From contig MU005957.1 of NCBI GenBank assembly GCA_010093745.1, forward strand, positions 372,001-436,000: 64,000 nucleotides of DNA, written 5' to 3'. Shown here piece after piece: positions 7,899-45,713 of this stretch (its first letter is position 1; each line of letters opens with the position of its first letter). The notes beneath the pieces are model-generated. The model saw only the letters and a program-made list of their open reading frames with translations. It did not search any database and was not told the DNA's origin. The translations under genes were made by a program, and so were the position numbers. The DNA is from Piedraia hortae CBS 480.64. Lineage: Eukaryota.

Positions 7899-8408
7899 GA
7901 TTGTCAAAGTAAATTCCACGAGTGTGCTATCTAGAGCTTTTTTTGTTCAACTTGCCATTCTACAACACGTGCTTTGTTTCGTTCATTCACACATGGCCGT
8001 GAACTGTTGTTGCGTTTACGTGCGCCTTTCCTAAACGGTCATTGACATGGGCAACCGCGATGATTGTTATCGTTAGGAGCCTGTGGACTGTTTTACTGTC
8101 AGTTAGCTATCTTTCAATGTCATCGATTCTATCTACCTTGGATCTAGCTATCTAGCTATCTCTAACTCTTCAAATGACTTTTGCAACGAATGGTAAACGG
8201 TTGCCAGTTGACAACCGGAGCGGCCCGCAACGTTGGGCCGTGACATGACATTTGACATTGACATCGTTTACGCGGCCAGTCCAAGGGTGCCACCGCCCCA
8301 GCCACAGCCAGCTTTGCATTAATCAATCCCGGGGCGCAAACGCCAGCCATCTGTTTTGCTTCTAAATCCTGGCCTCCCGCCCGACATAATTCATTTTCCC
8401 TCCCGAAT

Positions 8409-13938: not shown

Positions 13939-14619
13939 GACCGTTACTATGCGGTGGGGAGGTGGAGCTGGGTGGGGGGTGAGGGGTTTGGTGAGGGGTG
14001 AACGAATTTCTGAGTGTCGGCGGTCGGCAAAGTGACGGCCCGCATGGCCCCAGGCTTGGCAGAAATTTCCTGTGTAACACGTGGTTAGCGCACTCGGCTT
14101 ACCGTTACGGGAAAGCCGCCAGTGTCGCTGACCAATCACCGATCCCAGATGCAGTCGCTAGAGAGCGGTGAGAAGATTTTTCTACTAGCTATTTTGGACA
14201 TGCATGAACGAACCGTCCGATCGACGCCAGGTTTAGACGAACGCTCAGAACGTAGACAATTTATTGACGTGATCTGGCAGATCATCAGTTACAGGGTTAC
14301 CACATAGCCAGTCGAACTACGCTAGTAGTCACCTCAACTAGCTTTAAGCCACTTGCTCTCGGCGTTTTCACGGCCAAGCCTGACAGCAAAAGAAATTTGC
14401 TCCATCTCTGATCTTAGTGTTGAGGAAATGCTCGGCCGAGTGCTGCTCCATGACCATATTTGTATTAAAAAACTTCCTCCACTTCCCATCAACCAAGGGC
14501 CGAGACCTCATTGGCGGCGTCCCCTGTGCGTTCTCTACAGTCTATCTGCACGACAGCTAAAAAGGTAAACCGTCGTAGAATTTACTGACCCCGCCTATTA
14601 TTCCTTCATCTCCTGAACA

Positions 14620-17150: not shown

Positions 17151-17197
17151 TAGGGTTAGGATGCTCTTTCCATTTTTGTCGGCGAAAAAAAAAGTTT
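17151..17197. promoter_or_regulatory. Candidate KRR1 promoter elements (TAGGGTTAGG and RRPE-like GCGAAAAAAAAAGTTT)
   Basis: Both motifs lie in the 126-nt gap upstream of the KRR1 ATG; function inferred from ribosome-biogenesis promoters of other fungi. Confidence 0.3.
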
Positions 17198-17222
17198 GAG
17201 CTGTGCGTGGGAAGGTTGTATA

Positions 17223-19040: not shown

Positions 19041-19258
19041 CGACCGAGTTGGCGATCATGGCTCTGTTGTCTACGTAATTCTACAGTGGGAGATTGCTTC
19101 CAGGGCGCAGCAAATGCCGCGGCGCCTTGCCCGTTTGGGCGGTGGGAAACGGCCACTAAGCAGGCTTTGACTTGGGACTCCAGCCATATGCACCTAGATA
19201 GCCCTAGATAGTTGTAGATAGCCATAGATGGAGGCATGAGACGATATTTCCTACTTTT

Positions 19259-24985: not shown

Positions 24986-27956
24986 TCAGGATGAAGCCGA
25001 GCTCCCGCACCTGGCAGGGTCAAAGCCGACAACAGTGTGCGAATAAAGCAATCCAGAACCGTCATCCATTGATTTTGCAGCATTCGGCTATAATTCGAGT
25101 GCGTGATGGATTTAGCATGATTTCCCGATTGCACTTCTGCTTTAGTCACGCTCACTTACGAGACATCACAGTGGGTCTCTTGCCGGCCGTACGATGAATA
25201 CGGCTTATGGGAAAAACAATGGGTCAATTACGTTATCATTTCTCGCCAAGCATTCGGTGTCGAGCATGAACAGGATGAGTTCCAGTATATGGTTGACCGC
25301 TCATCTTGCCGGGTAGTGCACAAGTCTTATTCGAGTTCTAAGTTTGCAGATAGACTTAACACAAAGTACAAACGCACGAGGCTTTCTGTTCCCTGTCATA
25401 GGACTTGAGCGATCTACATAATGTTTAGAATCGTATTGCCTTGCAGGCTTGAGAATAGGTATGCTAATAGAATCGGCTTCGGTGAATCGGGTTGAGGACG
25501 ATAGATGTATCCATCGATAATCCACAAAATAAACCTTGGTGGGCATGCTCCTCATTTACGCATCACGGCAACACATTGTATGAAGCTTAAAGCACGCACC
25601 ATCCACCGAAGCACGTGGATTAAAAGGGTCGGCGAGCAGTTGGCGTCAAAATGGGGCTGAGTTCGATTGAGAGACCTAGTTTGTAGTGACCCGGAAGGTT
25701 CGAACTGTAGAGTCACAAGGCACGACAGTGCTGTGCGATGACAGTGTCGATTCCTATTCCTGCTTGATGGGAAAAATACAGAAAATGTGCCAAAATTGCA
25801 GCCTCATTCGTAAGCACAGATTGCAGCATTACCTTATATCCCAAGAAAAGACTTGCAATCACGCTCTGCGGTTTTTGGTCTTCACTTTCACCCCGATAAT
25901 CATTTACAACAGAAGCTTTGTTTGTGTCTTGCAGTCTGATACATCACTGCTCGTGCGAAAAAAAACTTCTCTGAAGATTGATATTCTATCCCCCATAGGA
26001 TTATTTAAATAATTGTCGAGGTGCATCAACCAGTGAGGGCAATGCTTCTGGAACTTGGCATCCTTCTATACGATGGCAAGTCACTGAAACGCTAGCCAGC
26101 CAGTTTAGTATTCGCCGAGGCAGAACCAAAGGCGACAACAAAGCCTCGACTAGTGTCATTATTGCAAAGCAAACCCTCCACATCGTAACTAGTGCTGTAA
26201 CTGCTGGTATCACGTGACAGACCCAGACCAGCCATTCTAGAAAGACTAACGGCGAATATGAGGCCCACGAAATCGGTGAAAGAGGCTCGCTTTCGCAGAA
26301 CAAAGAGCATGGATAAGGTGGAGGCATTTCTTGAGTGGCAGTGGTTGTTGGGGCAGTGGCAGGAGCTAGCTCAGGTGGAACAAGGTAGACTGGGGGTAAC
26401 AGCTCTGTAGTCAAGCTGCTGCTGGCGCAGCCGGTGGCGTTGCAAAATCAATCGGACGTTTTTTGGAGGTGAGGCGGGGAATGTGACGTGAGCGGTCCGA
26501 ACCGCAACCTAGCGTGTCCGTTGCGGGCTGGAAAGGCTGAAAAGTGGAGGCCGCGCTAGAATTGTCCAGACCAGGGTTGCCCAAAGTACGAAACCCAGAA
26601 GCAGCACGATCACTGCACCATGCAAGGGCAACTGGCGGGCAGCGACTTTCGGAGTTTTCTCTGCCGGCAGCAAATCGCCCAGAAGAACGGTAAGACTGGG
26701 GCTCGCGCATGTGAAGAATACGATCTTCATCGGGTACAACGGCACGAGCCGTCCCGCCGAAACTGGCATTACCTCGCCGCCGATGAGGAAAGTGCATCTG
26801 CGCTCAGAGAATGCAAGAGCGATGCAAGTGATCACACTGAGGTAAACCTTACAATACTGAGCAGAAATATAAACTAGCTCTCGCTGGGATGGGGTGACGA
26901 GGCAACTGTTCAACATCACGAACAGAGGTGCTCTGCGTCCAACTTCGTCGGCTCGGTGCGAATTGACACTTCTAGAAGTTCCAAAGGCCAAGCATCACGT
27001 CAACAAGACACATGAGAAAAAGGAATGTAATGTGTCAAAACCATTTAGTTACGTTAATGGGGATAAGCCGTTAACTGTCGCGGGCAATCCGGTGGTCAAA
27101 AGGAGACTGCGCGAAACATAATCAAGCCACGTGATTTGCCGAGATATCCCCCACAAGAGTTGCTTATTGGCTTGATGGTCGCTCATTGGATTGAATGTTT
27201 GAGTAACGTTTGACATGGAAGAATTGCCATGATACAGCGCCGCTCATTGCCGGAATCATTTGCCGCGTCGTCAACGGCAGGTGGTGGTCACGGAGTGACT
27301 AACACAGGAGTCTCCAACGGTCAATTTCGAGTTGACGGAGTGAGCGCTCCTTCGGATGCAGGTTCCCGTGCTGGCTAGTGCAGACGACCGCACGGGTGAT
27401 TTTTGGCGCCGAGATTCGGCCGACGTTCCAGGATGTCCGAGCAGCAACCGTCAAATCAAGGGAGTGTATGCGAACAATAGTGTAGACGCGGTTGTAAGTG
27501 GCTATTGTATATTCCAATTGTTAAAATTTCCTACTTTTACTGCTGTTCTAGTTCCGCTTTGAGCTGCAGCCTTTAAAACGGGTACCGCTTTCAGCATCGC
27601 CTCTGTTGATTGGTTGCCGATACCGGCCACACAGATTTCGCACCGCTGTCATAGCTGACAGCCAATTAGAAGTTGATTAGCCCGCGGTGAAGCCCCTCTC
27701 CAGCCCGTGCACCGGCCCGTTTGGTTGACCGAGTCCGTCTCGTCGTCGTGCTGACATTTGCCCGTGTGCGGGACCGTGTGTACGCGGGCGCCAAGACGGA
27801 TCTTCCCGCTTTCCCAGCACGCCAGTTAAATCCCTCCCAGCTTCGCTCCCGTTGTTACCTTTTTCCCCTCTCCCCTCACCCACCCCCAGCTTCATCACTT
27901 TCGCCTTACCCCCCGGCCATCAATAACTCCCCAGCGGCCAGCTTCCTCTCCAACGT

Positions 27957-30900
27957 ATGGCCGCGCCCCGTGTAAGCTTCTCTTCACCCGACAAAGAAAT
28001 GGAGACCTCGGAGCCCGCACCCGATCGGGCGCGCAAGTGGTCTCAGGCGCCTGGTGCCATTGAAGATCTTGGTAAGTTAGCTGATGGTAGACGCGTAAAG
28101 TACATGTGCTGATGCTCTAAAGATGAATACACGGCGCTCCAAAAGTACATTTCCACGTACAAGGACCCCAAGGCCGCGGAAGCGGAAGATGCTCAGGGCC
28201 AGAATGCCCAGGACGCTGGCAAAGGCAAGAAATGGTGGCAGGTATGCATTGTAGTGCCTTTGTGAGCAAGGTGCGCTGCTAACCTGCTCCAGTTCTGGCG
28301 CTCCGGCAGCTCTGCAGCCGCAACGGACAAGGATGCCGGCAACGTGCCCGACGAGTTTCTCGAAACCAGCATTAGCGATGGCCTTGGCGCCGAAGAGGTT
28401 GAAAAACGTCGCCGGCGGTATGGGTGGAACGAAATTACGACGGAGAAGGAGAATCTGTTCATCAAGTTCCTCACGTTCTTTACCGGTCCTATCCTCTATG
28501 GTACGTGTGCTCTCGCCTTGTGGCCGTCGTCCGCTAACAGCAATGTCAGTAATGGAACTTGCTGTCCTCCTCGCTGCTGGCCTGCGCGACTGGGTCGATC
28601 TCGGAGTCATCGTCGGTATCCTTTTGCTTAACGCTCTTGTTGGCTGGTACCAGGAGAAACAAGCTGCCGATGTCGTGGCCTCTCTCAAGGGAGACATTGC
28701 TATGCGAGCTGTTGTCATTCGCGGCGGTCAGGAGGCGGAAATTAAGGCGCGCGAATTGGTTCCCGGCGATATCGTTATCATCGAAGAAGGCCAGAGTGTC
28801 CCGGCAGACGCCCGCCTTATCTGTGACTACGAGCATCCCGAGGACTTTGAGCGCTACAAGGAACTCCGCGAACAGCACTCGTTCAGCCCCGAAGAAGACC
28901 CCGCTGGCAAGGAGGATGGCGAGGGCGAGGGTGAAGAAGGCGCCGGAATCCCGCACCAAGGTCATGCTATTGTTGCTTGCGATCAATCAGCCATCACGGG
29001 TGAATCTCTTGCCGTCGACAAATTCATGGGCGACATGGTCTACTATACGACGGGCTGCAAGCGCGGCCGCGCCTACGCCGTCTGTGTTGCATCAGCCAAG
29101 TACTCTTTCGTCGGTCGCACAGCAACGCTTGTGCAAGGCGCCAAGGATCAGGGCCATTTCAAAGCCATCATGAACAACATTGGCACCTCGCTTCTGGTTC
29201 TCGTCATGTTCTGGATTCTCGCCGCCTGGATCGGTGGTTTCTTCCGTCATCTCCATCTGGCCACACCCGAGAAGTCGTACAACAGCCTCCTCTATTACGT
29301 TCTTATTCTCTTCATCATCGGCGTGCCCGTCGGTCTGCCCGTCGTCACCACAACGACTCTGGCTGTCGGTGCTGCTTACCTCGCTAAGGACAAGGCCATT
29401 GTGCAGAAACTCACTGCCATCGAGTCGCTTGCTGGTGTCGATGTTCTCTGCTCCGATAAGACTGGAACCCTGACGGCCAATCAGCTCTCTATCCGCGAGC
29501 CTTATGTTGCCGAGGGCCAGGATGTAAATTGGATGATGGCGTGTGCCGCTCTTGCTTCGTCGCACAACGTCAAGTCTCTCGATCCTATTGACAAGGTCAC
29601 CATCCTCACACTCAAGCGCTATCCCAAGGCCCGTGACATTCTTAAGGACGACTGGAAGACCGAGAAGTTCACTCCCTTTGATCCCGTTTCCAAGCGCATT
29701 ACCACCATCTGCACTCTTCGCGGCGACCGCTTCACTTGTGCCAAGGGTGCTCCCAAGGCCGTTCTCAATCTGACCGACTGTACCAAGGAGCAGGCCGACT
29801 TGTTCAAGGAGAAGGCTGCTGAATTCGCCCGCCGTGGTTTCCGCTCTCTCGGTGTCGCCTACCAGAAGAACAACGGTCCCTGGGTTCTCCTTGGCATGCT
29901 TTCCATGTTCGATCCCCCTCGTGAAGACACGGCTCAAACTATTGTGGAGGCCCAGCAGCTCGGTGTGCCGGTCAAGATGTTGACTGGTGATGCCATCGCC
30001 ATCGCCAAGGAAACGTGCAAGATGTTGGCTCTCGGTACCAAAGTCTACAACTCCACCAAGCTCATTCACGGCGGACTCAGCGGCACAATGCAGCACGATT
30101 TGGTCGAGCGCGCAGACGGTTTCGCCGAAGTGTTCCCTGAACACAAGTACCAAGTCGTCGAAATGCTCCAACAACGCGGCCATTTGACTGCTATGACTGG
30201 TGACGGTGTCAACGACGCTCCATCGCTCAAGAAGGCTGATTGCGGTATCGCTGTCGAAGGCTCCTCGGAAGCCGCTCAGGCCGCTGCCGACATTGTTTTC
30301 CTTGCTCCCGGCCTTTCGACAATCGTATTGGCCATCAAGATCGCCCGCCAGATTTTCCAGCGCATGAAGGCGTACATCCAGTACCGCATCGCGCTCTGTC
30401 TGCATCTCGAAATCTATCTCGTCACCTCCATGATCATCCTCAACGAAACCATCTCGGCCGAGCTTATCGTCTTCATTGCTCTCTTTGCTGATCTGGCCAC
30501 TGTTGCTGTCGCTTACGACAACGCCTTTTCTGATCAACGGCCCGTCGAATGGCAGCTTCCAAAGATCTGGGTCATCTCTGTTGTCCTCGGTGTCGAGCTT
30601 GCAATTGCTACCTGGATCATCCGCGGAACACTCTTCCTGCGGAGCGGTGGTGTTGTGCAGAACTACGGCAACATTCAGGAGATCCTCTTCCTTGAAATCG
30701 CTTTGACTGAGAATTGGCTCATCTTCGTCACCCGTGGTGGTGCCACTTTCCCCTCGTGGCAGCTCATCGGCGCCATCCTCGTGGTCGACGCCATTGCGAC
30801 TCTGTTCTGTATCTTCGGTTGGCTCGCTCCCGAGTATGATACGAAGCCTCTTCCGGACCCGATGGGTGCCTTTTACCACCGTCAAGATCCTCACAAGCGA

Positions 30901-31155
30901 ACCGATGTCGTCACAGTCGTCACCATTTGGGCATACTCCATTGGTGTCATTATCATTATCGCCATCACCTACTTCATGCTCAACCGCATCCCTGGGCTTG
31001 CCGATCTCGGCCGTCAAAAACGCAATATGCATGATACCCAAATGGAGAACATTATTGCGCATCTCAGCAAGCTGGTTGTACGGAAGGAACATGATAAAAC
31101 AGGCGAGGAGAAGTGGGCATTGGCTGCTAAGGCAGAAGACGACGACGAGGAGTAA
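27957..31155 (+). CDS. PMA1: Plasma-membrane H+-ATPase; introns 28072-28122, 28242-28292, 28501-28549
   Basis: DQSAITGES, CSDKTGTLT, KGAP, FDPPRED, MTGDGVNDAPSLKKAD, LTENWLIF. The spliced N-terminus reads MAAPRVSF...DEYTALQKYISTY...KKWWQFW. Confidence 0.97.
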
Positions 31156-32299
31156 TATAGAGGTTAATACTGTATGTTTTCCTTGTCTTCTTGTATATGC
31201 TTTTCTGATCCACTTCATGTCTCCTGTGCTGTGTTTTTCCTTCATTTTAGTATGCAAGTGCGAAACTAACACTAGATTTGACGTCTGATTTTTTCGGATG
31301 TACCCAATCGTCTCGTACTTGGTGGTACCTTTTTGGAACCAACTCGGACTGGTGTAATATCAATCCATCGAACTACGTACAAAGCCTTTGAACTCGGTTA
31401 ACATGCTTCGCACTGAGCTTAATTGGCTTGTGAGTCAACCCTGTGCTGCTGGCAAGGCATCTTCAAGGACAGGTCTTGCTCAATCCGATATATGTTTCAC
31501 ACACCCATTACGAAGCTATCGATACCGACGTACAGATTGGATTATGTAAGAATATTAGAACCTGTGCATGGCTCAGGGATTCGGTGTTTTCAGCAGAGTT
31601 GACCTACTTGATCACTTGATAGGGTTCATATTAAAAACGCAATGAGGGCTGTTGTGAGCGTCTCGGGTAATGATTGCTAACCATTGCGATGACTGGATTG
31701 TCTTGATCTGGCTACAAACTCTGGCCAACTTTGAGACGGCAATCACAACAATCCACAATGTCTTGGCGTTCAATGGCCAGAACGCAATGCTCATCCACCA
31801 AAGAATGATGATTAAAGGGTAAAGGCTGAAGGATATGATGTCGATATTCACGTAAGAAGAAATGCCATCGCTCGTCGAGCTGCTTCCCTCGGTTCGTCAG
31901 GACAGCGTTCAAGGCACAGTCCGAATCAACCCCCGAAGCTTTGCCAATCATTGTGACAAGGAATTTTGACCGACATGCTTGTCACAAATTTCTGAAAGAG
32001 CTCATACTGGATGCAAAGACTACTTGATGTGCCAAGTTCATCAAACAGGGGTGTTGTACCTTGATAAGGACAACACTCAAATCATCAAATAAAGCCGCTA
32101 TATACCAAGCTGAAAGGTGCTTTGTACCAACGAAATCAAAAATGTAACCTCAGACAAAGGCACATGATAAAGACACGGTGCACTTATTCCAGAATTGCGC
32201 TGTACCTTGTAAGCAACATCTTGCCCCAATCTGCCAAAACTGTAACCTACATTCGGAAAGAATACTGCACACCGACTACGATCCAACACACCTTTGAAC

Positions 32300-33391
32300 A
32301 TGAGCAACCAACAGCAATCTCTCAACTGTCGTAGAGGCAATGCCTCGGGCAGACAATCAACACCAAACACCTCGGGCCGTCCCCAACGCAGCGCTGGTTC
32401 GCTGTCCCCGGAGTCCGATGCGACTCGCGCAACCGAAAAACGCAAGAGGTCTGGTTCTACTGATGCAACTAAGTCTCCTAAAAAGAAACTGAAAATGGAT
32501 TCTGAAAGTGCTGAAAACGTCTCACACGCTATGGCACGCAGCGAATTTATGGCTCGAATCAAACATGAATTGTGCGATGACCCAAAATTGCTGGAACAAT
32601 TCGGAGAAAGATGCGAAGCCCATCTGGCGGGCAAAGCCGATGTCAGTATGGTGCCAACTTCCGTGAGAGACATTGCTGCCACAACCGACAACCCGGTCGT
32701 AGACTGGTTCGAAGAATTCGCCGCTTTAGTGCGCCAAGAACCGGATTTGGAAATGAACAGAGACAATATCAGCTATTCTCCCTATGTCAAGAGGAAACGC
32801 GAAAAACAAAACCGCCGCCAACGTTTTCCCGCGTCAGTGCTCGAAAACTACTGGTATTGTTGGAAGTTCAAATTGGAGCGCGGAACGGGGGATATATTGA
32901 AAAACGCGTATGAGTCCTATTTGATCGACATTCAAGAATCACATTATTGGACAAAGCACTTAATCGCGTCATGCTTCACCACAAAGCACCTCCTAGAACA
33001 ATTCAAGGAACGCCTTGAGATGTTGGGTGATCGTGAGCAACGTAATTTCACCTTGCCGCGGTTTTTGGGCCAATCAAATGAAATGAAGTACATGTTCACC
33101 CTGAGGAAAATCTATGGCACCGAACGAGCCAAGGAGATTGCCAAGCGGCTCTTCGAAACCCCATATCTGGTTGTTATCCCCCTTTACAATCAATTGACGA
33201 AGGAATATGAAAAATTGGAGGCAGAACGGTTGAAGCTCCTACCTAGATGGATGCAGGAGTATGGAGAGTATGCTCCGAAGGCTTTGGATTACCAGCTTTT
33301 CAAGCCAGCTGTACGATATACTTTTGTTTCTGAGAAAAAGGTAGTGGGACAGGAGGAGGGACAAAAGGAGGACGAGGAGGAGGATGAATAA
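32300..33391 (+). CDS. Divergent truncated Sin3-like protein (basic NLS-like region, PAH3-like helices, HDAC-interaction domain, acidic tail)
   Basis: Colinear with the fungal Sin3 HID as recalled: SY..KRKREK, SVLENYW, KNAYESYL.IQE, NFTLPRFLGQSNE..Y...RKIYGTERAKE...LFETPYLVV, W...KALDYQ. 363-aa uninterrupted ORF. Confidence 0.8.
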   Translation: MSNQQQSLNCRRGNASGRQSTPNTSGRPQRSAGSLSPESDATRATEKRKRSGSTDATKSPKKKLKMDSESAENVSHAMARSEFMARIKHELCDDPKLLEQFGERCEAHLAGKADVSMVPTSVRDIAATTDNPVVDWFEEFAALVRQEPDLEMNRDNISYSPYVKRKREKQNRRQRFPASVLENYWYCWKFKLERGTGDILKNAYESYLIDIQESHYWTKHLIASCFTTKHLLEQFKERLEMLGDREQRNFTLPRFLGQSNEMKYMFTLRKIYGTERAKEIAKRLFETPYLVVIPLYNQLTKEYEKLEAERLKLLPRWMQEYGEYAPKALDYQLFKPAVRYTFVSEKKVVGQEEGQKEDEEEDE

Positions 33392-33775
33392 TAAACAAGA
33401 TGCCACGATGATTGAATGCAAGATTAGACGGAGAATGCAGCCATCTTCGCAAGGTTCTTGTCCGATGACTTAATGTAGAATCTAAGTAGTGTGGACCTTA
33501 CCAGGTGGGAATTACACCGTCAATTCTAGACTCTCAAATAGTTACCGACATGGGTTATTGGCAGCCAGTGGCACTGTTTCAAGATCGTGAGTGGTACCAA
33601 TGCCTACTCCCGCCTCAAATCTTGTGGCTACCTGCTGAGGTGCCTTGCCGAGGGGATTGTCCGTCATATCCGCTACTTGAAAACGGGTCTGGAACACGCG
33701 AGGGCTGGTCCGGAAAGTAGCTGCTATACCATCGAAACTTGTGCAAGCTTCTTCAGGGGGGGCCGGCTAAACGAT

Positions 33776-33868
33776 ATTCTGGGGTGACCCCACCAAAACC
33801 CCGCGATCCCGCGACACAACATAACACAACACCAACCAAGCTCGCTTGTCGTCGCGGGTTTGGCGTTC
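33776..33868 (+). repeat. Left arm of an inverted repeat pair (partner 38481-38602)
   Basis: 33787-33817 ACCCCACCAAAACCCCGCGATCCCGCGACAC is the exact reverse complement of 38561-38591; flanks also align with mismatches. Confidence 0.9.
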
Positions 33869-34676
33869 CATACGGCAGATTTGTTTCTGAATCTTGATTT
33901 GGCCATGTAGCATCGCTTGCTTCTTCACGTTGCAGTGCAGCGCAGAGCAGCGGAGCTTCTTATGATGCCTCGTGTAACCACCGAGCCTCTTGTATCATAC
34001 TCCTCTAATGGACATGCTAAGTCAAAGCTTTAGTCGTTACGATATCAATTTAGCGTTGGCGGTTTAGATAAAGCACGCTTTTGCGCAAGACTTTCAATGC
34101 GAATAGCGCCACGTACGAGTATCCGACATAGTTATAAGCCAGTGTTTTCGAGGACGAAAGCTCTGGTGATTCATATGGTGTCTCTTTCGATTGTTCGTAG
34201 ACCTATCTGCCGCCATTACGGCGCGATTCGTGCAGAACCCGCGCTCTCGCAGGCCTTACGCCCATTCATCGCCAAACCACAGATTTAGAGTACCACCCCA
34301 CGATCATTATAATCTTCAAGATGTCGTTTTTTAACCGCACGTTGTTTTGGGCATGCATAAAGTTGTGTCGTTCTGTTCTCTTCGGTTAAAGTAGGCGGGT
34401 CGGATCTATGACGGCATCATTGACGCGCAGGATTGTCGCAAAGTCTTTTGAGTGGTCGTTCTGTAACGTTCCTCGCGTCTCAAGTGTTGCGCAGAAGCAT
34501 TCACGCAGTGTGGATGTGCAGAAGACTTCCAAGGAGCTACGCTTGACGTACCGTCCTACTTCACGAAATATATCGAAGTGACAGACCAGAAAAGCGCTGG
34601 TGAACTGAGCTGAACCAATTGGATCGCCGTCACAAACATGCTCACGAAACATTTTATGGTAAAAATTCAGCGTGGA

Positions 34677-35514
34677 TCATAAGATCTCAAAAATTATATA
34701 GTACAGGAACTGTTCAAAATCATTGCCTAACGCCGCACCAAGCCATCCCTCTTCTTCCGTCGATTCGTCGAAAGGCGCCTGATAATCCACAAGAGCTTGC
34801 CATTGACGGCCACCATATGTTTTCGGCGTCTCCCCCAGAGGTGGTTCCCGCAGCTCCAACTCGTGCGTGGTGATGGCTTGTAGCAAGGAATCATAGGCCA
34901 GCTTATGGTCCCGGTTGTTTCCTAGAGTCGCTTGTCCATCAATATTTCCATGGATCCAGAAACTCACCGTAGTTCGCGGTGAAGTGCTCTAAGCCCCGGT
35001 TCTTCGGGGGGCGGGGGAGATACTCGTCCATATCAAACCCCTCGAGGTAATAAACGAAAGTTTGCAGAAGCCCCGGATCTACAATGCTCCCTTGCTCCAC
35101 CCCGCCGCTAAAATCTGGCCTCTGGTAGAGCACAAATGGGATCCCAGGGGCGGTGTGCGGCCGGTTTTTTTGCTTGCGAATTATGTGACAATTCTAATGG
35201 AAGGCAAAGTCGGTTGCCTCGGTGCGGATGATCGGCAGATAAACAGCCAGGAAGGCTATCCTGTGGGTATAGAGGTCCTGGTTGTACTGGTTGGTAGAGG
35301 TCAGCTCTTGTAAGTACAGTCGCCAGGTGAGAAGCGCTGACTTAGAGCATTGGGCCCACCAAGATTCGATTCACTGGTTGGCCTTACGTGTGCCATACCG
35401 GAAGCAGCTCTCACACGCTAGCTCTCCCATACTCTGTTGGCGGATTTGGCCACTGGGCCTGTGATGGCAATAGCCTACCAGTGTTGTCTCAGCGCCTCGA
35501 TCTGACCGAAGCCA
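34677..35514 (-). mobile_element. Decayed DDE integrase-core transposase (IS3EU-like), 3' half only
   Basis: One frame reads LRSDRGAET...CFRYGTRKANQ*IESWWAQ...WRLYLQEL...HRIAFLAVYLPIIRTE..FH*NCHIIRKQKNRPHTAPGIPFVLY...DMDEYLP, with stops at 35371-35373 and 35194-35196 and a frameshift near 34950. Confidence 0.8.
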
Positions 35515-35520
35515 GAGAGC

Positions 35521-36187
35521 CCAGGTTTGATTTTCTCCTCTCCTCCGACGAGGTGGCCAGGGCTGGCTCTCTCCTAGGCTGGCTGATCCGGACTTCGAGG
35601 GACACCCGCCTTATTCACCAGCTAGCGGTCATCCTGGAGCTCAACCGGCCTTTCTTCTTGAACGTCGGGAACGGCGACGTGCCGGAGGAGATAACGCCGC
35701 CCCTGGACACCTCCGGGTTGACTAGCATGTTCGCGTGCTGGCTGCCGAAAGGCGGCAAGTATCAAATTGAAATAGGCTTCCCTAGGGAGGTGGAGGATGA
35801 GAGATCGTCGCTGCTTGGGTCTCCTACCCCTTCTCCGAGCCCGCCCAGAGAGGTAAGCATATGAAGAATAACATTTCCGATCAGCTAACGTGAAGTTAGA
35901 CTCATGAGCGTCGTCGTGGCCCGCCCCTACCATCGGTGGAAAAGATGCTGGACCTCCATCCCTCGCCCAGTCCACGTGACGAGGTAGGCTTTGAAAAAAA
36001 GGCTATTGAGTCAGCGCCAACCAAAGTGTAGCTTCGCGCCGCGCCACCGCCGCCCACTGTGGAGAATATGGAAGAGGACATGGTGGAGGAAGAGCCAGTA
36101 GCCTCGCGCAGCCAAGGCAAGAGGCGAATCGCAGAGGCCGAGCCCGTGGAGAAGAGAATGAGCAAGCGTCTGAGGAGTAAGGCGTAA
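35521..36187 (+). pseudogene. 3' remnant of a spliced gene abutting the transposase fragment in divergent orientation (possible second ORF of the element)
   Basis: Open frame FDFLLSSDEV...SPSPPRE, clean intron 35853-35899 (GTAAGC...CTAAC...TAG), possible intron 35984-36031, then an acidic/basic tail EKRMSKRLRSKA*. No start codon of its own. Confidence 0.5.
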
Positions 36188-38480
36188 TTGTATTCATTGC
36201 TTTCGCTTGGTAGATAGTCGATAGTTGACGGGCTAATTCATGTGGAAGCTTGGGCAAGCTGTGTGTGCGCAGCTTGATGTCGTTTTCTCAATAGCCTCAG
36301 AGAGCATGAGCCTACCTCGGTGCGTCCACGGTTGTGCGAGACCCTCTAGATGCAAGTAGCATCACGCATAATTACCCTATATTGTATTCCGTGCCACTTG
36401 ATCTATGTTTTACATGGGATGCTTTTCGGACATCCACGGTTCTTTTGCGGCGGGTATGTCGCGCAATGTATGCCACTATCCATCAGGTACAGCTTGGGTG
36501 CAGAACGGGAGGGCAACCAGTGCGTCGAAAACTCGATAGCCATGATCCCTGGCGTATTGACCTTCCAGAACAGTCTGTTTGAAGCACGTGTGAGGGCTGT
36601 GCGATGTGTCATGTTACTTCAGAGTAGAGGAAATACTCTTGCTACGACTTCATCAGTTTCGAATTGACACAACATAGCTCATAGCTGAAACAGATGGCAT
36701 GTACGAGTGAGAACGGCAGACGGAGAGTAGAGATGTGTGCACAAGTGAATTCAAGTGTATCTACCAGAGAACATCAGAGAATATATTCTGGGCCGGTGGG
36801 CCAGTGCGTAGACTCATATGAAGAGTCATCAATCGTATGACCGCAAGCAAGTGGTCATACATGCAGAAAGACCGTCAGTATACGGACTTACTCCATAACT
36901 CACCTCAAACAGTAGCAGGGCGCATTCACCATGTCGCTTGCGATATGACACTGAAGGAAACCTTTGTCAGGATAAACCTAGTGTGCAGCTGTTGGTGTAA
37001 GAGGTGTTGCGCAGTGGCGTCGTACACTCATGGCAACGAGACTCCATGCCACCAATAGCCGTCACAACCAATTGAGAGTAGCTTCATGTGAGAGCTAATG
37101 TTGTCCAGATGCGAATTGTGATGATACAAAGAAGTAATAAGCCGCTTGCCGGGTGATTTAGTTCTGCTGGCCTTGCCTTAAATGGTTATCGGAACTTTCT
37201 CAAAAATGGACCATACAAGCGCGATCGCAAACGTGAAGAACATTGAAATATAATCTGTGAAGCGATGTCTTTCACGCAAACTGATCGGGAACCTCATAAG
37301 ACGTATACGTGGCGCGCTATTCTCTCGTTTGGAATCTATTCACTTCGAGCGATTTGCGCCGATTTGGGTGTTGAATCCGAAAGGTTGTTGGACCTGAAGA
37401 AAGAATATGCCACTGAAGTTGTATCTGGGTAGGGGTCCCTGCGGGATTCCCTAAGATTATGGCCAATTTCTGGTGAGCCTCAAGCACCATGTAAAGCAAG
37501 ACCAGTTGAAGGATGTGCCACGTGATGACCATGAACAACGTCCCCTCATGTACGTAGTTTATATAACTATACAATTATTCACGTCTTAGTGTACTCACAC
37601 TATCACTTCGTTCCCTTCAACTAGACCAAAAACGGACAAAAGCGTAGGGTCTTGGACACATTAATACCTTTTATTGTACATCCTTACATTTTTCCATGCT
37701 GCGACCTCTCATTTGAAACCACTCTTTAAGTTTTTGCGGCAATCCCGCGTTGTGTTTTGCTGAATCAAAGCTAATCAGGCTGTCGCACATCTGGCTCGCC
37801 ATATTTAACCGGACAAAGCGCAGCACTCAAACCTGGCGCCTAAACCAAAGTGCAATCGAAGAACAACACTTTGAAAATATAAAAACTGGGGCTTGATACG
37901 CTAAAGCTGTGATCAGGTGGCATATTGGCCTCATGTCTGCTAGAGCGCGGTTTAGCAGCACTCCCGACGAATGCGTGGCAAATGGAGTTTTGAAAAATTC
38001 GAACGAGTGCCATATAGGTCGTCAGAGTATTTGTCTTCAGATAAGCTAGTTTTTGGGTTATGTAAGATAAGATAATGTGGCCCCTTATTGGCGTGTAAAT
38101 CGTTGCGCCAACTCGTGTACGTGGTGGAGAAGATACCTACATTGAAAGTATATATGTGGGGCGACATATTACTGTTACGAAAGAAGCATAGACTCATATA
38201 TCCTCCATGCAGCGAAACAATGCAGCGATCAGAGGTACTATGTTCCAAACTCGTTAGACGTCGGCCACTGGCTTATTCTACTATTTACGCAGTTGGATAT
38301 TGGTGCACTTTTCATCGCGTGGTGGCATTAAAACTGTGTGGAAGACGCATCATCCTATCATTACCATTAAAGTGTAATTTTGCCAGAGCAGCGCGTGGAG
38401 ATTCATCCTCTTCATCGCGATGTGTAAGGAGGGCAATGCGACATGACGAAATGGTGAGCCTGATACTTGCATGGTCAATG

Positions 38481-38602
38481 AAGCGACAAACGCGCGAGGA
38501 CAGGCGAGTTTGGTTGGTGCGACGTTGTCTCGTGTTGTGTCGCGGAGTTGCGGTTGTGAGGTGTCGCGGGATCGCGGGGTTTTGGTGGGGTTATCCCAAA
38601 AT
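38481..38602 (-). repeat. Right arm of the inverted repeat pair (partner 33776-33868)
   Basis: Reverse complement matches the left arm; carries an extra internal segment with a second GTGTCGCGG. Confidence 0.9.
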
Positions 38603-39246
38603 GGCCATGATTGCAAAGGCGTTCTTATTTCAAGCTGAAGAGCTTCTGGAAATGGATGCCTATTCTTGGATAAGGCTGGTGGCAGTATGGAACTCGAACG
38701 GGTTCGAGATTATAGTACGCAGTGATTGATATATTTGCACTGGCATGCTGAAACATCCATTGAAAGCTTAATCTGCAGCCGTTTACTCATCAGGCAGCCT
38801 GTATTGGCCTAGCGGCAGGTTGAGTCCAACAATAGTTCTCTGACTAACCTTATGATCCTTTGATATAGCACAGCCTTGTTGCTCACAACTGCACGACACC
38901 TATATTCTTGATTTGTAGGCTAACCTACAATGTTGATTGGACCATTCAATGCTGGACATTGCAGGAGAAAATACTTATGCGGGCTTCATAATTGCCGGAC
39001 GATACGGCCAAGTTCTTGGCTGAGCGAACCATAGCCTATGATACGTGGAATGGCTCAGCGATTGAAAGATCGCGGTTGCTTGGAAGCCTACTAATACCGT
39101 CATGTCCGGGTGCATGCAACAGCTGAGATGCGGAAGTTCACTTCGGCTAAGTGCGTGCACCTCAAAACCTGAAAACGCGCTACTTCCACTTGTGACCGCA
39201 CACTCCACTTTTCCAATTTCACCGACACTGGCACACAACCGCAATC

Positions 39247-40513
39247 ATGGACATGAGGTCCATCATCACGCTGGTGCTCGCCGCCATCACGCTCGTTGCG
39301 GGCCAGAGTTGCTATAACCCCGACGGATCTCCTGCCCTCGACAGCTTTCCATGCTCCTCCGAAGGCGGCACATGTTGTCCACTTAACTGGGTGTGCCTGA
39401 GCAATGGCATGTGTTATTACCCGCCGGACGACTTTTATGGTATGTCGTTGTGTCCGACTTCTATATGACCGTAAGCTGATATTCAACTGTAGGTCGCTAC
39501 AGCTGCACCAGTGCTGACTGGAGCGGATGTCAGACCACATGCACTTCAAACCTGACGGATGTTGGCAATCAAGCTATTCTAAAGTGCTCAGACTCTAACG
39601 ATTCGTGGTGCTGTAAGTAAATTGCTTCCTACCAGACCTGTCTAACTAGTCAGGCGACCACAATCGTGATGCTAGCAAGCCTTGCTGCAATGACCACGGC
39701 GTGTCCTTCTTCTCACTCGCTCCCGGTCGTGCTGTGACCACAATCCACTCAGGGGCGACTGTATCAGTGCCAGCCTCTACGACCCCCAGCTCAGGAACGA
39801 ATGACCCTTCAACAGAAGGCTCTGCAATGAACGACCCGTCGACTACAAATCAGGCCACTAGTGCATCGCCAACAGCCGCATCAGGTGGGTCAACAACTCT
39901 TGCAACACCGGCTGATAGTTCGCCTGCACCGACGACGTTTCAGACGACCACCCAACGTCGGACTACCATCGATGGAAGCCCCACCACAGTGTCTGTACCT
40001 GTGACGATAATAGTCAACTCTGGAATGGGGAATATCAAGGGATCCACGTCTGTGTCTACGTCTGCATCCGCGTCTACGACCACTGGGACGTCTGGCGGAT
40101 CAAATTCCTCTACCTCTTCGTCGACCATTCTCGGCCTCGCAATCGGCATAACCTTCGCCTTGGTCGTTGTCGGTTTATTAATATACTGCCTCTGGCGCCG
40201 GCGCAAGGCCAAGGCTGGCCGCGGTAACTTCTTGCACTTTGGCAAACACAAAAAGGACAAACTCTTAGAAGAAAAATCAGACGGATATCAAGTGGGGCAT
40301 GTTGCCCCGGAGGGTCGAGCGCCAGAACTTGACAGCACTCCCGTGGCCAAGACGATCAATGCAAATAAGTGTGAGCTTGAAGGCAGTACGCTCAGCACTC
40401 CTGCCATGTCCGCTACCCTTGCAGCCACATTCCAGCAACCGCGCGTTCCTGAGACGCCTGACGATATGTGGACGGAGAGATTTCCACTCAACCATGAGCG
40501 CAAGGTTTCTTAA
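39247..40513 (+). CDS. Type I cell-surface protein (signal peptide, Cys-rich domain, Ser/Thr stalk, one TM, cytoplasmic tail; Mid2-like architecture); introns 39440-39492 and 39613-39653
   Basis: MRSIITLVLAAITLVAG signal, CYNPDG...CCPLNWVCLSNGMC, RYSCTSADW, SWCC; TM ILGLAIGITFALVVVGLLIYCLW followed by RRRK; tail with ELD/ELE motifs. Confidence 0.85.
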
Positions 40514-42071
40514 TGAGCCAATAACACAGGTAGATGCATTTTTCTGTCGTTTGTAATTCTGATACCCATGTATGATAGAGGAAATGTATCCGCTCCTTTG
40601 AAGACGAAGAATGAAGAAGATCAAGCACTACCGCTGACACGTACATAGCATGGCAGGAGGTATATATCTTTTTAAAAGCGGATAAACTACTCCGACTCAT
40701 GCAAGCCTACTGTTACAGAATGAATTTTCTTAGATTGATTATCGGACGTTTCTGGTTTTGCACTGGCCGTTCTGATGTTACCTTCTGGAAATGTATGCAT
40801 AATGACGCTGCGTAGCCTTGCCGTTGTTAAACCTGCTGCGATGGACAGCCTTGTCCCGTATTCGCCAAGAGAAGCTGGGGTGTGCAGCTGCGTAGAGGGG
40901 ATATGATAAGGTTGCTTTATTAACTACTGAGAAGTACTGAATGTGGGGAAAGTAATTTGGACGAGGGAGCAGTGAATGACTATTCTCGTTGAGAGGAGTC
41001 GATTTTCGGCCCTGGGGAATATTTCTACGCGTGAGGCATGACGGTGGCGGTGTTGCCCAGATTCCTTCGAAGAGAGCGGACCAAACAGAAGGAAAGTCGC
41101 CACAATCAAACCTGGATGGCGGGTTTTCCTCCATAGAGAACTGTCAACGGACGCGAATTAATTTCCACATTTTCTGGCCAGCACGAAGATATTGCCATAG
41201 AATTACGAACCTAGCTCTCACACAGCACGGATTTCCCCTTTGTTTACTTAAACAAATCCGCCATAGACTTACGAACCCTGCTCCCGAATTTTCACCCGAT
41301 GAATCTGCTTGAACCAATCTCCACACGAAATAAGCCAAAAGCAAATTACCCACAATACCACCACCCCACCAATCCATCAAAATGCTATATCATAGCCACG
41401 ATAAGCAACCACAAAAACGACATCAAACACCGATTGACAAAGCAACTCCACTAAGTTCTACATTTCATTCCAACAACAAACACCGAAAACTGGGTCGTTC
41501 CTGGCAAATACCGGGGTATCCCTTTTGTAGCGATATCCAAATGAACAACAGGTAGGAACATCGCCGCCTCGCTAATGATGGTGTGTGGATGGGAGAGACC
41601 TCGTATAGGGTCTAAAACTCGAGGAGGTGAATGGAAGGTCCTCGGTCGAAATCCCGTTAGGGGAGGGTAAGCTAGAGTGTGTAGCAGTTCTGGAACGATT
41701 TCAAGAGCTGAGGAATTTTAGATTTATTGGATTGGGAGAATCCTCGCTTGTTCTTGAAAACTTTTGCGCCGGTGTTAGAAGGTAAAATCTGATTAAACCC
41801 CTTTTCTCAAGTTAAAGGAACGAGAAGGGGAAGGTTTTACACCTGGTTCCTTTCCGTGATGAAGAAGGCTCGCCGGTAATTGCAGAACTCGATATGCTGG
41901 AGTGTGAAGAAACGTACTCGGATGGTTATATACAGTCATCAATAGCTTAGTCTGACAGCTACTCGGCTTGGAATGACACAGTTGGAAAGAGTTGTGGATG
42001 GCCATGAAAGAATTCGTTTCCTCATACACTATGGATAGAAAGGTATCTGCGACGCCTGCTCTAGGCTAGTA

Positions 42072-44705
42072 CTAGCTCGCCTCCGGCTTTTCCCCCGCTG
42101 TAGCATCGTCTGCGCTAATGGATCCCACGCGCGGAGTTGCACTTGCATTTGCACTCAGCGGCGGCGGTGGAGATGTGTCTCGCCCCTTGGCTTTGCGACG
42201 AGTGTAATCCGACAAGGTCAGCTTCTTGGTGACTGGGCTCTGGGCCACAGGCGTGCTGCTGTTGGGTGACAGAGCCGGAATAGTCCCAAGAGCACCACTG
42301 CTGCTGGGAGAAGCGAGTGTCGGCAGGCCGATGTTGACACCGTTCCGCGCTTCGGTCATGAGTTTCAACTTTTTGGCTGGGGGTGGCATATCATTGGGTG
42401 CACTCTCTTTTTTCTGTAGATCTGCACTTGGGTCCGGAGGCCTGTCCGTTGCAGGATCATTGGGTCCGGTGCTGTCTTTTGAGCTCTCTGTGGGAGTGAC
42501 TACTGAACTATCCTTGTGGCCGCCTTCCTTCTGTCCGCCAACGGAGGTTTCTTTGAGCTCTTTATTCTGATTATTGACAGACCCGTTCAGAGGGCTGCCG
42601 GCTGAATTGTCCACAGAGCGTGGCACAGATCGATTCGCCAAGGCCACACCAAGGCCAGTTAGCCATTCTGGTATACCTTCTTCAGCAGCCGAAATCACGG
42701 CAGGAACGTCAGGAGCAGAGACAGGGTGCTCAGGCTGCGACAAGGGCCCATCCGGGCCGAATTTAACGCCATGCACGGTGATCATATGGTCCGGCGCAGA
42801 TACTCCTTTCTTGGTATAGTACCTGGCATTGAATTGCGCCTGACGAGCCTCGGGTCTTAGACGGAGCGGAAGCAAATGACGCGTGCCTAAAAGCTTCTTT
42901 GATATGCTTTCCGCTTCTACCAGGTCCATATCGGCCTGTACTCCGCTATGAATACGACCCGGTGCTTCATTTCGTCTGGAGACGGCCGAATCTCGTGCAG
43001 ATTTAGCAAGCTTGGGCATATATTGTTTATTTTCCGAAAGTCTTGGCGGGCGGTCAATTGTAGGAGTACCCGAAGTGGAGCCGACACTATGCCGTTTTTT
43101 CCTGTGCCTTCCTTCTTCGGCCTCTTGGCGGCGGAACAATTCCTCGGCCTTGGCAACTTTTCGTAGATCACGACTGGAGATTCCATTGGTATGGGGCGTT
43201 AGATCGCGGCTTGTGGAACCTCGTCCAGCCGAAGGAGAGCTTGACTGGGACTCAGCATATTCTTCAGTTCCTTCTTTGCGCGCCTCGACAGCATGCGGCA
43301 TTGCCGTGTTCAGTGGCGAGATCTGACGACTCTTCTTTGCACGCCTTTTTGGCGCTGGCTTTGCAGGCGCAATCGATGCCCTGCGATCAAAGCGCGACAT
43401 GGAACACTGATCAGGCGGGAGGTGACAAGCGCAGGGACCGCAGTTGGAGAGAACAGTGGACACACGCACGTGTAGCTCAAGCATCTCTTCTGGGGACAGC
43501 GACATCGGCTTGCTGGGCGACAAGAAGCCAGCTGTATCCCAAGCCAATGCCACTTCGGTGCCGGGCTCAATGGGCTGCTTGGCCATGATGCAGAAGCGAT
43601 AGTGCGTGTTGTCCGTTACCAGGATCTTTAACTCTGCATTCGGGACACAGCTACGGCGCACGTACCGCAGCTCAGTACCGTCCTGTCGCGTGTCAATATA
43701 GATGGGGAGACGATGATGGAAGAAGACAAAGGGCTCTGGATGGCGGAGGAGATGCCACCGGTTCTTGGGGTCGGCAATATAATCATCTTTCCAGCCCACT
43801 GCGCCCTTCAATTCGCCGACAAAGCCGCCGGTTGGCACTGGCTCCGAGCGGATGATGACCCGCTTCCACCTTGGGTGGCCAACATGGTCAATCGTGACGC
43901 TTGGGTCCTGTTCTTCCTCCAGGACATAGTCGGCCTTGCCCGGCATATTCTCTAGTACCCCGTCGTAGCGCATCAGCACGCTAGACTTCTCGAAGCCAAG
44001 CTCGGCGCGAAAATCCTCGTCGGGCGCCTGGAGCCAGGAGAAGAGCTTGCTGCTGACGTCAATGGTGAAGATGTTGCATTCAGTAAGCTTCCATGAGTCG
44101 TTGGCGCAGTTACGCAGAAACTCGGCCGAGTAGCGCTCAAACGGCGCGTCCGACGACTTTGGAAGCACATTGGTCAACGTGCGCTTGCGGGAATGGCCCT
44201 TTGCGCCGTGTCCGTCGCCGACCGAACCGCGATGACTGGTTTTGGGTCGCTTGGTGGGTGGCGGCTGGTCGCGGCCGCCGACGTTATTGGCCACTGGCCA
44301 CCCATTGGCCGCCGATTCCTTGGTGCGTTTCTTCTGGCCCTTGGACGCTTGGCGCCGTGTACCATTGGCTGCCGAGTCCTGCTGTTCGCGCCGTGCCCAC
44401 TGACGGGCATGAGCGGCGGCGTGGTCCAACTCCCGTGGCGTGCACTCGATGCAAAAGTGCTGCAGATCCTCAGGCAGGTCCTGGCCGTCATACTCTGGGT
44501 AATAGCAGAGAGTATGGTTCCACTTGTTGCACTTGTCACAGGCGACCGTGTGGCCGTCGTCATCAGCAAAGCCGCAGAAGCAACTAATTTGGCCATCATC
44601 ATCTGGCGGCTCGCGCGCAGGCAGGGCATAGCGGGGCGTCTCTGGAAAAGCGGCGTGCGTCAGCGGTAGACCAGGGTAGCTTCTGGCCGGAAAGCCGTCT
44701 GTCAT
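42072..44705 (-). CDS. SET3: PHD + SET domain protein (Set3/Set4 family)
   Basis: PHD ISCFCGFADDDGHTVACDKCNKWNHTLCY...FCIEC; SET region LRHPEPFVFFH, IDTRQDGT..RYVRRSCVPNA; C-terminal KKLTLSDY. Start assumed at ATG 44705. Confidence 0.88.
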   Translation of the reverse strand: MTDGFPARSYPGLPLTHAAFPETPRYALPAREPPDDDGQISCFCGFADDDGHTVACDKCNKWNHTLCYYPEYDGQDLPEDLQHFCIECTPRELDHAAAHARQWARREQQDSAANGTRRQASKGQKKRTKESAANGWPVANNVGGRDQPPPTKRPKTSHRGSVGDGHGAKGHSRKRTLTNVLPKSSDAPFERYSAEFLRNCANDSWKLTECNIFTIDVSSKLFSWLQAPDEDFRAELGFEKSSVLMRYDGVLENMPGKADYVLEEEQDPSVTIDHVGHPRWKRVIIRSEPVPTGGFVGELKGAVGWKDDYIADPKNRWHLLRHPEPFVFFHHRLPIYIDTRQDGTELRYVRRSCVPNAELKILVTDNTHYRFCIMAKQPIEPGTEVALAWDTAGFLSPSKPMSLSPEEMLELHVRVSTVLSNCGPCACHLPPDQCSMSRFDRRASIAPAKPAPKRRAKKSRQISPLNTAMPHAVEARKEGTEEYAESQSSSPSAGRGSTSRDLTPHTNGISSRDLRKVAKAEELFRRQEAEEGRHRKKRHSVGSTSGTPTIDRPPRLSENKQYMPKLAKSARDSAVSRRNEAPGRIHSGVQADMDLVEAESISKKLLGTRHLLPLRLRPEARQAQFNARYYTKKGVSAPDHMITVHGVKFGPDGPLSQPEHPVSAPDVPAVISAAEEGIPEWLTGLGVALANRSVPRSVDNSAGSPLNGSVNNQNKELKETSVGGQKEGGHKDSSVVTPTESSKDSTGPNDPATDRPPDPSADLQKKESAPNDMPPPAKKLKLMTEARNGVNIGLPTLASPSSSGALGTIPALSPNSSTPVAQSPVTKKLTLSDYTRRKAKGRDTSPPPPLSANASATPRVGSISADDATAGEKPEAS

Positions 44706-45713
44706 GCTCTCGCAAACCGAAAGCTCAATGGTTGCAGTCAGATTGGGGTCGCCGCGTCTGTCCAGCGTCGCATGACTGGACGACAACGACAGAAGCGCGA
44801 CGGCCGTCTTGGAAGTTCGCCGTGCGCTCCAGCAGCGGATCAACTGCCTTATCTGGCTGGGGACGGGGCAGCTGTCGGGTTCGCGTCAAGACGATGGAGG
44901 CCCGATTGAACAAGACTGCCGAACACTCTGAGCTACTGCGACCAGGAGCAAGGCCGTCTGCGTGACCGCCAAATGAATTCAACCTGCTGCGGAAGCGGCC
45001 GAATTAGGGAATTCGCACGCACGTTCAGGAAGGAGACCGAAGCAGACTGTACAATGTCGGGAAGATATCGAGAACACTGTCCGAAAGGGCCAACAAGAGG
45101 TTAATTCGACAGATGTGTGAAGGGTGAGTCGCGACGGGCGAAGCCTTTGCGAGTGGTCCGTGCTGGCGTCAAGAATGACAGTAAAACTCCACAGGCACTA
45201 ACCGTCGCTAGTGTCTTGGCGGAGCTTACGTCCCTTGGCAGATGCCAGCAGCCATTAAAGATTGGTGGGATAAATCATCATCAGCTACGGAACAAAAGCA
45301 AAGGTCTGAGATTTCACATTACTAGCCATGTATAACGAGTCGCCGTCACCGTCCTCACACCCACAACCCACATGCCTGGTCAATTACGCGCTCGGAGAAT
45401 TAATCTGGATGCACGTGGATCTCCCAAACCAACCCAATGTTGTGTCGCCTATGCGGCCAGGACACTGCATGAAATGCAGCGCACATTCGAAAATCAGGCT
45501 TCCAGGCGATCGTATCTGTCTTCGCTGATGGAGTTGAAGAGCATTCTTCCTTTGACAAAAGGCCTTGAGCGGGAGACCTTAATCCCCAAAACGGCCCGCT
45601 GCATACGTGCATCGGAGGGGTTCTTCCGGGGAGCCGACGCTAACACCTAAAGCGACAAGTACACCCCACTTTGATAAGCCGTCGCCAGGCGAGTCCATCA
45701 AGGAGCTGCCACC

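Follow-up and report, generated by a model that had tools for sequence, protein, structure and literature searches.

Positions 32300..33391 (+ strand) of a 64,000-nucleotide stretch of the Piedraia hortae CBS 480.64 genome (assembly GCA_010093745.1, contig MU005957.1, positions 372,001 to 436,000; hereafter the window) hold a complete, intronless coding sequence of 363 amino acids, stop codon included in these coordinates. The product, here termed mini-Sin3 (P0001), is established as a truncated and extremely diverged homologue of the middle segment of the corepressor scaffold Sin3, with the histone deacetylase-interaction domain (HID) and a putative PAH3, encoded in its own intronless open reading frame (ORF). 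An initial annotation, prepared from the letters of the sequence, had proposed a likeness to the Sin3 HID from its motifs; searches with phmmer, hhalign and a HID profile of our own uphold that likeness. Below we describe the gene, its predicted fold and its degree of divergence, and weigh what such a gene may represent.

The frame, which lies exactly where the initial annotation had placed it, opens with an ATG at 32300, with A at position -3, and runs uninterrupted through 363 codons to a TAA at 33389-33391, directly followed by a second TAA (33392-33394). The nearest in-frame upstream stop lies at 32243-32245, 18 codons 5' of the ATG. The resulting 381 open codons are more than chance would provide: across 20000 first-order Markov simulations of these 1146 bases the longest open run was 270 codons and the median 91. 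Codon-position G+C contents of 0.519/0.387/0.527 are coding-like and follow the pattern of neighbouring genes, for example that of an Hrq1-type helicase. An overlapping antisense frame of 224 codons (32098-32772, - strand) matched no family; we regard it as a side effect of the coding sequence on the opposite strand. No signature of repeat-induced point mutation (RIP) was detected in the ORF (TpA/ApT 0.54; (CpA+TpG)/(ApC+GpT) 1.32); the flanks are similar and the indices normal throughout, which rules out RIP as the source of its divergence. Every peptide block quoted in the initial annotation could be read from the translation: KRKRSGSTDATKSPKKKLK (residues 47-65), SYSPYVKRKREK (158-169), SVLENYW (179-185), KNAYESYLIDIQE (201-213), NFTLPRFLGQSNEMKY (249-264), RKIYGTERAKEIAKRLFETPYLVV (269-292) and KALDYQ (327-332), followed by an acidic tail, GQEEGQKEDEEEDE (33347..33388, + strand; residues 350-363).

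Homology to Sin3 is supported by several searches. Among proteins of known structure, phmmer aligned residues 172-333 with Schizosaccharomyces pombe Pst2 (8i02_A; E 6e-9) and residues 200-330 with positions 799-929 of Saccharomyces cerevisiae Sin3 (7yi0_A; E 3.7e-8), with further matches to Pst1 (4e-6), human SIN3B (2.3e-5) and the HID fragment of mSin3A (2n2h_B; 3.4e-4). Interrogation of 1.84 billion cluster representatives retrieved 71 proteins at E <= 1e-3, 70 of them other than the query; the best of these scored E 9e-11 at 31% identity, and only the query itself fell below 1e-30. All of these matches lie within residues 129-363, leaving residues 1-128 uncovered. When 31 of the 70 were scanned with Pfam, every one contained Sin3_corepress above threshold (26-148 bits), and the long ones additionally contained three PAH repeats and Sin3a_C. 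Aligned by hhalign with 14 Sin3 PAH3+HID sequences, mini-Sin3 gave a probability of 98.6 and an E-value of 6.7e-16 over residues 77-334. A HID profile of 192 positions, constructed without mini-Sin3, recognized residues 150-335 with 73.5 bits (E 3.9e-23), while 70 canonical Sin3 proteins scored 183-328 bits. Residues ~150-335 are thus a true, if extreme, homologue of the Sin3 HID.

Searches for the remainder of Sin3 located none of it. Pfam detected no match to Sin3a_C (PF16879) on mini-Sin3, which ends 28 residues after the four-helix finger described below, and the structural model of the protein contains just one PAH-sized bundle. When ten Sin3 proteins were compared with the window by tblastn, nine matched only the interval 32690/32771-33295 (E 2e-15 to 3e-11), and the tenth, P0008, gave no match at the mini-Sin3 ORF; PAH1, PAH2 and Sin3a_C were not found elsewhere in the 64 kb, all other matches having E >= 0.11. 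A weak recurrent match to the start of Sin3_corepress at 17153-17311 (E 0.11-6.4) lacked Pfam support and was taken as chance. These results bear out the earlier statement that the ORF lacks PAH1, PAH2 and the C-terminal domain, and show that it encodes a homologue of the middle part of Sin3 and nothing else of that protein.

An AlphaFold2 model, computed from a 33-row alignment with a mean predicted local distance difference test (pLDDT) score of 70.2, divides the protein into four parts. The N-terminus (residues 1-67; 32300..32500, + strand) is predicted to be disordered, with pLDDT 38-46. Within it lies a stretch resembling a bipartite nuclear localization signal (NLS; residues 47-65; 32438..32494, + strand), which reads KRKR, ten residues, KKKLK. 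This stretch had been pointed out before and is present as described; it fits the textbook bipartite pattern and is a putative NLS on the basis of that pattern match.

Residues 68-146 (32501..32737, + strand) form a predicted PAH3-like bundle of four helices (68-90, 95-109, 115-125 and 132-145; pLDDT 68-83). Structural comparison of residues 71-146 by VIA gave Z 8.7 with mSin3A PAH1 (root-mean-square deviation (rmsd) 3.1, 71 residues aligned) and Z 8.4 with yeast Sin3 PAH2 (rmsd 2.1, 69 aligned), values within a range that the tool flags as common for helical bundles. The hhalign path, which starts at residue 77, takes in the PAH3 columns. A clean PAH3-only profile reached 4.2 bits, a score equalled by 2 of 2000 shuffled sequences, with the alignment out of register; a broader PAH3 profile reached 2.3 bits, equalled by 62 of 2000. 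The bundle and the hhalign path speak for the PAH3-like part claimed initially; against it, the Pfam PAH model is silent and the PAH3-only profile scores poorly. We assign this region to PAH3 weakly, mainly from its position, that path and the predicted four-helix fold.

The two C-terminal parts correspond to the HID. Residues 150-199 (32747..32896, + strand) are a degenerate counterpart of HID-N, the part that makes up most of Pfam Sin3_corepress, and the model falls below pLDDT 50 over residues 149-189. Residues 200-335 (32897..33304, + strand) represent a well-preserved four-helix finger (FHF), modelled mostly at pLDDT 85-98 (up to residue 330). By VIA, residues 198-330 superposed on the mSin3A HID solved with Sds3 (2n2h_B) with Z 12.8, rmsd 4.8 and 125 residues aligned. 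For the model as a whole, all 18 Foldseek matches at E <= 1e-3 were Sin3 chains, and the top 20 VIA rows were likewise all Sin3 (Z 12.0-16.8), residues 74-331 being placed on yeast Sin3 659-929. An Atlas model made without an alignment (pLDDT 0.55) also retrieved Sin3 clusters first.

Conservation of the surface that faces the deacetylase is uneven. From 69 canonical HIDs we defined 31 near-invariant columns, each conserved in at least 90% of the sequences, and mini-Sin3 keeps 14 of them, divided between HID-N (3 of 12) and FHF (11 of 19); the hydrophobic pattern of the FHF is kept as well. In PMC10432269, the yeast HID is redefined as residues 749-1322, with HID-C also wrapping Rpd3, and Glu811 and Glu812 of an FHF helix (the 'Glu fingers') enter the inositol-phosphate pocket of Rpd3. 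In the ungapped phmmer alignment (residues 200-330 on Sin3 799-929) these two correspond to Q212 and E213, so that one of the two is kept. PMC10115800 lists Arg615, Leu618, Ile622, Leu623, Asp625, Glu657 and Tyr755 as contacts of Pst1 with Clr6; using the conserved R-x2-L-x3-(I/V)-L-x-D spacing and the phmmer range (residue 180 on Pst1 622), the first five of these map to R173, F176, V180, L181 and N183. Mini-Sin3 thus retains roughly one third of the region that wraps Rpd3; its FHF is in good condition and its HID-N in poor condition. The initial annotation had equated the conserved blocks with the Sin3 surface that binds Rpd3; that surface is present only in part, HID-N being degenerate and HID-C missing.

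The divergence behind these losses is exceptional. In a maximum-likelihood tree of 70 HID segments (mini-Sin3 and 69 canonical sequences; P0051 was dropped as it covered fewer than 150 profile positions), the terminal branch of mini-Sin3 measured 4.1 changes per column, about 20-fold the median of 0.21, and its HID is by far the most diverged among the 70 compared. Its position in the tree is poorly fixed as a consequence of this branch length. Eleven of its 12 best phmmer matches sit in a single 28-row Sin3 clade, supported by a Shimodaira-Hasegawa-like approximate likelihood ratio (SH-aLRT) of 98, which hints at derivation from an ordinary Sin3 of that clade's lineage. We infer that the gene arose as a partial duplicate of the host's own SIN3. 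Searches for closer kin were negative: among 5.8 billion clusters a near-length search returned only the protein itself, a search among longer proteins returned no relatives, and a metagenome scan yielded 133 pattern matches, none confirmed. Neither an orthologue nor a paralogue was found in these collections. The combination noted at the outset, of very high divergence with an intact frame, is thus borne out by the branch of 4.1 against 0.21 and by 381 stop-free codons, and fits a retained partial duplicate.

Evidence of transcription was sought in two public sequencing runs mapped over 27000-42000 and available as contigs only, X1 being DNA, possibly the run from which the window derives, and X2 presumed to be RNA. 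X2 showed seven joints not seen in X1, six of them GT..AG and 41-53 bases long, and therefore contains spliced RNA. A 1611-nt contig of this run is colinear with 32206-33816, with no difference and no joint, and spans the entire ORF, as fits an unspliced transcript over the whole gene. Since X2 consists of contigs, transcript level, ends and strand cannot be read from it; likewise, the uncovered gap between the end of X2 contigs at 32126 and their restart at 32206 carries no evidential weight.

With about as much confidence as reservation, we read mini-Sin3 as a lineage-restricted, truncated SIN3 paralogue, very fast evolving and kept under selection, that possibly docks partners of the Rpd3 complex through its FHF. 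Selection over most of its history is argued by a frame that stayed open through ~4 changes per site, by the kept hydrophobic pattern and by the confident fold of the FHF. A number of observations weigh on the other side. Pfam Sin3_corepress (PF08295) reaches 17.3 bits (E 0.0049, residues 159-241), under its 25-bit gathering cut-off, and Pfam detects no PAH on the protein. Changes affect 17 of the 31 near-invariant columns, including both conserved Cys (in HID-N), most of HID-N and one Glu finger, and HID-C is missing from the protein, though in Sin3 it too wraps Rpd3. The alignment given to AlphaFold2 was made of Sin3 proteins, so that the likeness of the model to Sin3 is partly built in. No relative closer than ~31% identity occurs in the protein or metagenome collections searched. 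The mean depth given for the X2 contig that spans the ORF is 18, like that of neighbouring gene-free stretches, and its signal is possibly DNA carry-over or pervasive low transcription. Nuclear location and all binding steps, finally, are deduced rather than observed.

How such a protein would act can be outlined from the Sin3 complex. The NLS-like stretch would probably direct the product to the nucleus, where the FHF, with or without the PAH3-like bundle, could still dock on components of the Rpd3/RpdA complex; in Sin3 this finger overlies Rpd3's basic inositol-phosphate pocket and binds the helix of an Sds3-type partner. Having neither PAH1 and PAH2, which recruit transcription factors, nor the C-terminal region that binds Ume1/Prw1, mini-Sin3 would be unable to scaffold a full complex, and would, if acting at all, compete with or modulate canonical Sin3 complexes. 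As a competitor it would fill the basic pocket of the deacetylase or hold Sds3/Rco1-type helices, with no recruitment through PAH1/2 and no Ume1-binding C-terminus. We consider it rather doubtful, if conceivable, that this separately encoded derivative with PAH3 and the HID finger only is an endogenous competitor with, or modulator of, Rpd3/RpdA complexes, tuning or locally relieving Sin3-dependent repression in one fungal lineage.

The fold might instead have acquired a new function, the PAH-like bundle and FHF persisting as a helical scaffold that has lost contact with Rpd3 and serves other partners (for example an Sds3-like coiled coil only, or partners unrelated to deacetylation). This is unlikely in our estimation, while deserving serious weight. 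It would account for the poor state of HID-N, the Rpd3-contacting part and the worst kept (3 of 12 columns; pLDDT <50), for the absence of HID-C and the loss of one Glu finger (Q212), and for the correspondence of the best-kept part to the segment of Sin3A solved with Sds3 (2n2h_B); a very long branch also fits a change of function. Against it, R173, F176, V180, L181 and E213, the counterparts of Clr6/Rpd3 contacts published in PMC10115800 and PMC10432269, are kept or conservatively replaced, and no result points to an alternative partner.

A functionless remnant would be a partial SIN3 duplicate heading for loss, its open frame and low transcription persisting without function. Such a fate would agree with a singleton that has no relatives in the collections searched, with the loss of over half of the near-invariant residues, with a location adjoining a repeat-bearing, gene-poor stretch, and with RNA support consisting of one contig. 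We regard it as improbable: neutral sequence that accumulated ~4 changes per site would not retain 381 open codons, a length that no simulation attained; the G+C periodicity is of coding type, and the FHF still folds at pLDDT 85-98 with its hydrophobic pattern kept.

The genomic surroundings bear on a further origin, in which a fragment of SIN3 was captured or moved by a mobile element, or arose as a retrocopy of partial SIN3 mRNA, with a role tied to the element. The window is a housekeeping region that encodes peptidase M3, thymidylate synthase, a proteasomal AAA ATPase, TIM, TGT and Krr1, together with a cystathionine-type pyridoxal phosphate (PLP) enzyme and MFE-2; a gene for a PMA1-type H+-ATPase lies just upstream of mini-Sin3, and genes for a SET+PHD protein and the Hrq1 helicase lie downstream. 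Beginning 385 bases past the mini-Sin3 stop, inverted 50-nt arms (33776-33825 / 38553-38602; also 33801-33830 / 38524-38553) of 88% complementarity bound a 4.8-kb segment that excludes the ORF. The X1 DNA contigs break at both arms, which makes it probable that their sequence recurs in the genome; they might mark the termini of a non-autonomous DNA element, or be two small repeats in inverted orientation. None of the frames inside the segment is transposase-like. The initial annotation had spoken of visibly decayed DNA alongside the gene. This is borne out in part: the interval 33.4-39 kb is repeat-bearing, with no recognizable protein family, and shows no RIP signature.

The intronless state of mini-Sin3 would suit such an origin, as would the repeats and inverted arms just downstream. 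A third point comes from six short Sin3 models in the databases (P0018, P0041, P0047, P0038, P0024 and P0040), which leave the consensus with 'Q-V' at a shared position right after the motif EEWKxxQ, presumably by read-through of a conserved intron common in many fungi. Mini-Sin3 is continuous at that point (~residues 310-311), as would fit intron loss or a cDNA origin. Several results argue against capture or retrocopying, and we judge it very improbable: the ORF stands 385 bases outside the inverted-repeat segment; no transposase, reverse transcriptase, integrase or other mobile-element domain was found in 31 flanking frames (E <= 0.1); no variant letters were seen over the ORF among the rows listed for the DNA run at 85% likeness; and there is no recognizable poly(A) or target-site trace. 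The first two of these results also speak against the earlier suggestion of a transposon-linked anti-silencing factor. That mini-Sin3 belongs as an exon to a larger gene, or represents the sole SIN3 of the organism, misread as stand-alone, is scarcely credible even granting that the evidence spans one 64-kb window, given the in-frame stop 18 codons 5' of the ATG and the double stop at the end, the absence of any PAH1, PAH2 or Sin3a_C match in the 64 kb, and an X2 contig that is joint-free over 32206-33816 while the run contains six GT..AG joints elsewhere in the mapped stretch.

Other features of the window merit record. RNA-derived contigs reveal that the gene for the PMA1-type H+-ATPase has three GT..AG introns of 49-51 bases at its 5' end (28070-28122, 28238-28290 and 28499-28549), so that its true start lies upstream of 28333, where the long ORF has its ATG. 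Two spliced transcripts, 35351-36254 and 38562-40567 (+ strand), with GT..AG joints at 35850-35898 in the former and at 39438-39492 and 39612-39654 in the latter, contain frames that match no Pfam family; the second includes a frame of 287 codons that encodes one transmembrane-like segment and faintly matches Psg1 (E 0.023). Two intervals within the segment bounded by the inverted arms, ~36744-37040 and ~37504-37622, show summed contig depths of hundreds to thousands in both runs, with many variant letters, against flanks of ~13 (X1), and look like high-copy dispersed repeats. Nine kb downstream of mini-Sin3, a 937-codon frame (42072-44885, - strand) with a PHD finger and a SET domain encodes another chromatin protein. 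A 2280-codon open frame at 52219-59061 (+ strand) has no Pfam match; its product (32% Ser, rich in Thr, Pro, Ala and Gly; G+C at second codon positions 0.744) begins with a signal-peptide-like sequence, carries near its C-terminus one hydrophobic segment with a basic stretch after it, and from its sequence looks like a giant Ser/Thr-rich mucin-type membrane protein, perhaps reminiscent of Msb2-type signalling mucins. Long frames with no Pfam family (E <= 0.01) also occur in the housekeeping portion, at 17223-19055 (- strand, 610 codons), 8262-9446 (+ strand, 394) and 13177-14157 (- strand, 326).

Sin3/Rpd3 complexes hold a central place in repression. Filamentous fungi cannot do without the deacetylase RpdA, which is seen as a target for drugs (PMC7010864). 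A natural fragment that retains just the finger with which Sin3 faces the deacetylase would offer a tool at hand for asking which part of the HID suffices for binding, and mini-Sin3 could exemplify regulation by a truncated paralogue. The absence of any relative limits what can be concluded about it. Were it merely a fast-evolving orphan, it would still show plainly that part of an essential scaffold, once duplicated, can survive extreme divergence with its frame open.

Short database proteins that appear to consist of Sin3_corepress only (187-500 amino acids; Atlas clusters of 297-429) are similar to mini-Sin3 in length and in their apparent PAH3+HID-only make-up. Unlike it, they reach 71-148 bits with Sin3_corepress, and in the tree they are nested among Sin3 proteins of full length. 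Because of these canonical-like scores, this nesting and the 'Q-V' break shared by six of them, they look like fragments of ordinary SIN3 gene models and not a mini-Sin3 family. A natural truncation is provided by the short isoform of mammalian SIN3B, which is a splice isoform of a normal gene that retains the N-terminal PAH part, lacks the HID and forms no complete scaffold. It represents the opposite half of Sin3, whereas mini-Sin3 is a diverged gene in its own right that retains the HID part but not PAH1/2. In the literature searched, which includes an account of long and short forms of SIN3B (PMC3786298), this N-terminal form was the nearest natural truncation, and no natural stand-alone PAH3+HID derivative of Sin3 was found.

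With the full scaffold itself (S. cerevisiae Sin3; S. pombe Pst1, Pst2 and Pst3; human SIN3A and SIN3B), mini-Sin3 shares homologous HID-N and FHF regions, preceded by a putative PAH3, and several published Rpd3/Clr6 contact positions. It differs in size (363 amino acids against 1150-1730 in full-length matches), in sequence (~20-28% identity) and in lacking PAH1, PAH2 and HID-C/Sin3a_C (HCR). A structural parallel is the mSin3A HID fragment solved with the Sds3 SID (PDB 2n2h), a 125-residue fragment that superposes on the best-kept part of mini-Sin3 and demonstrates that this segment can be an independently folded, partner-binding unit. That fragment was excised from a full-length protein in the laboratory, whereas mini-Sin3 is a natural stand-alone gene whose product may bind Sds3.

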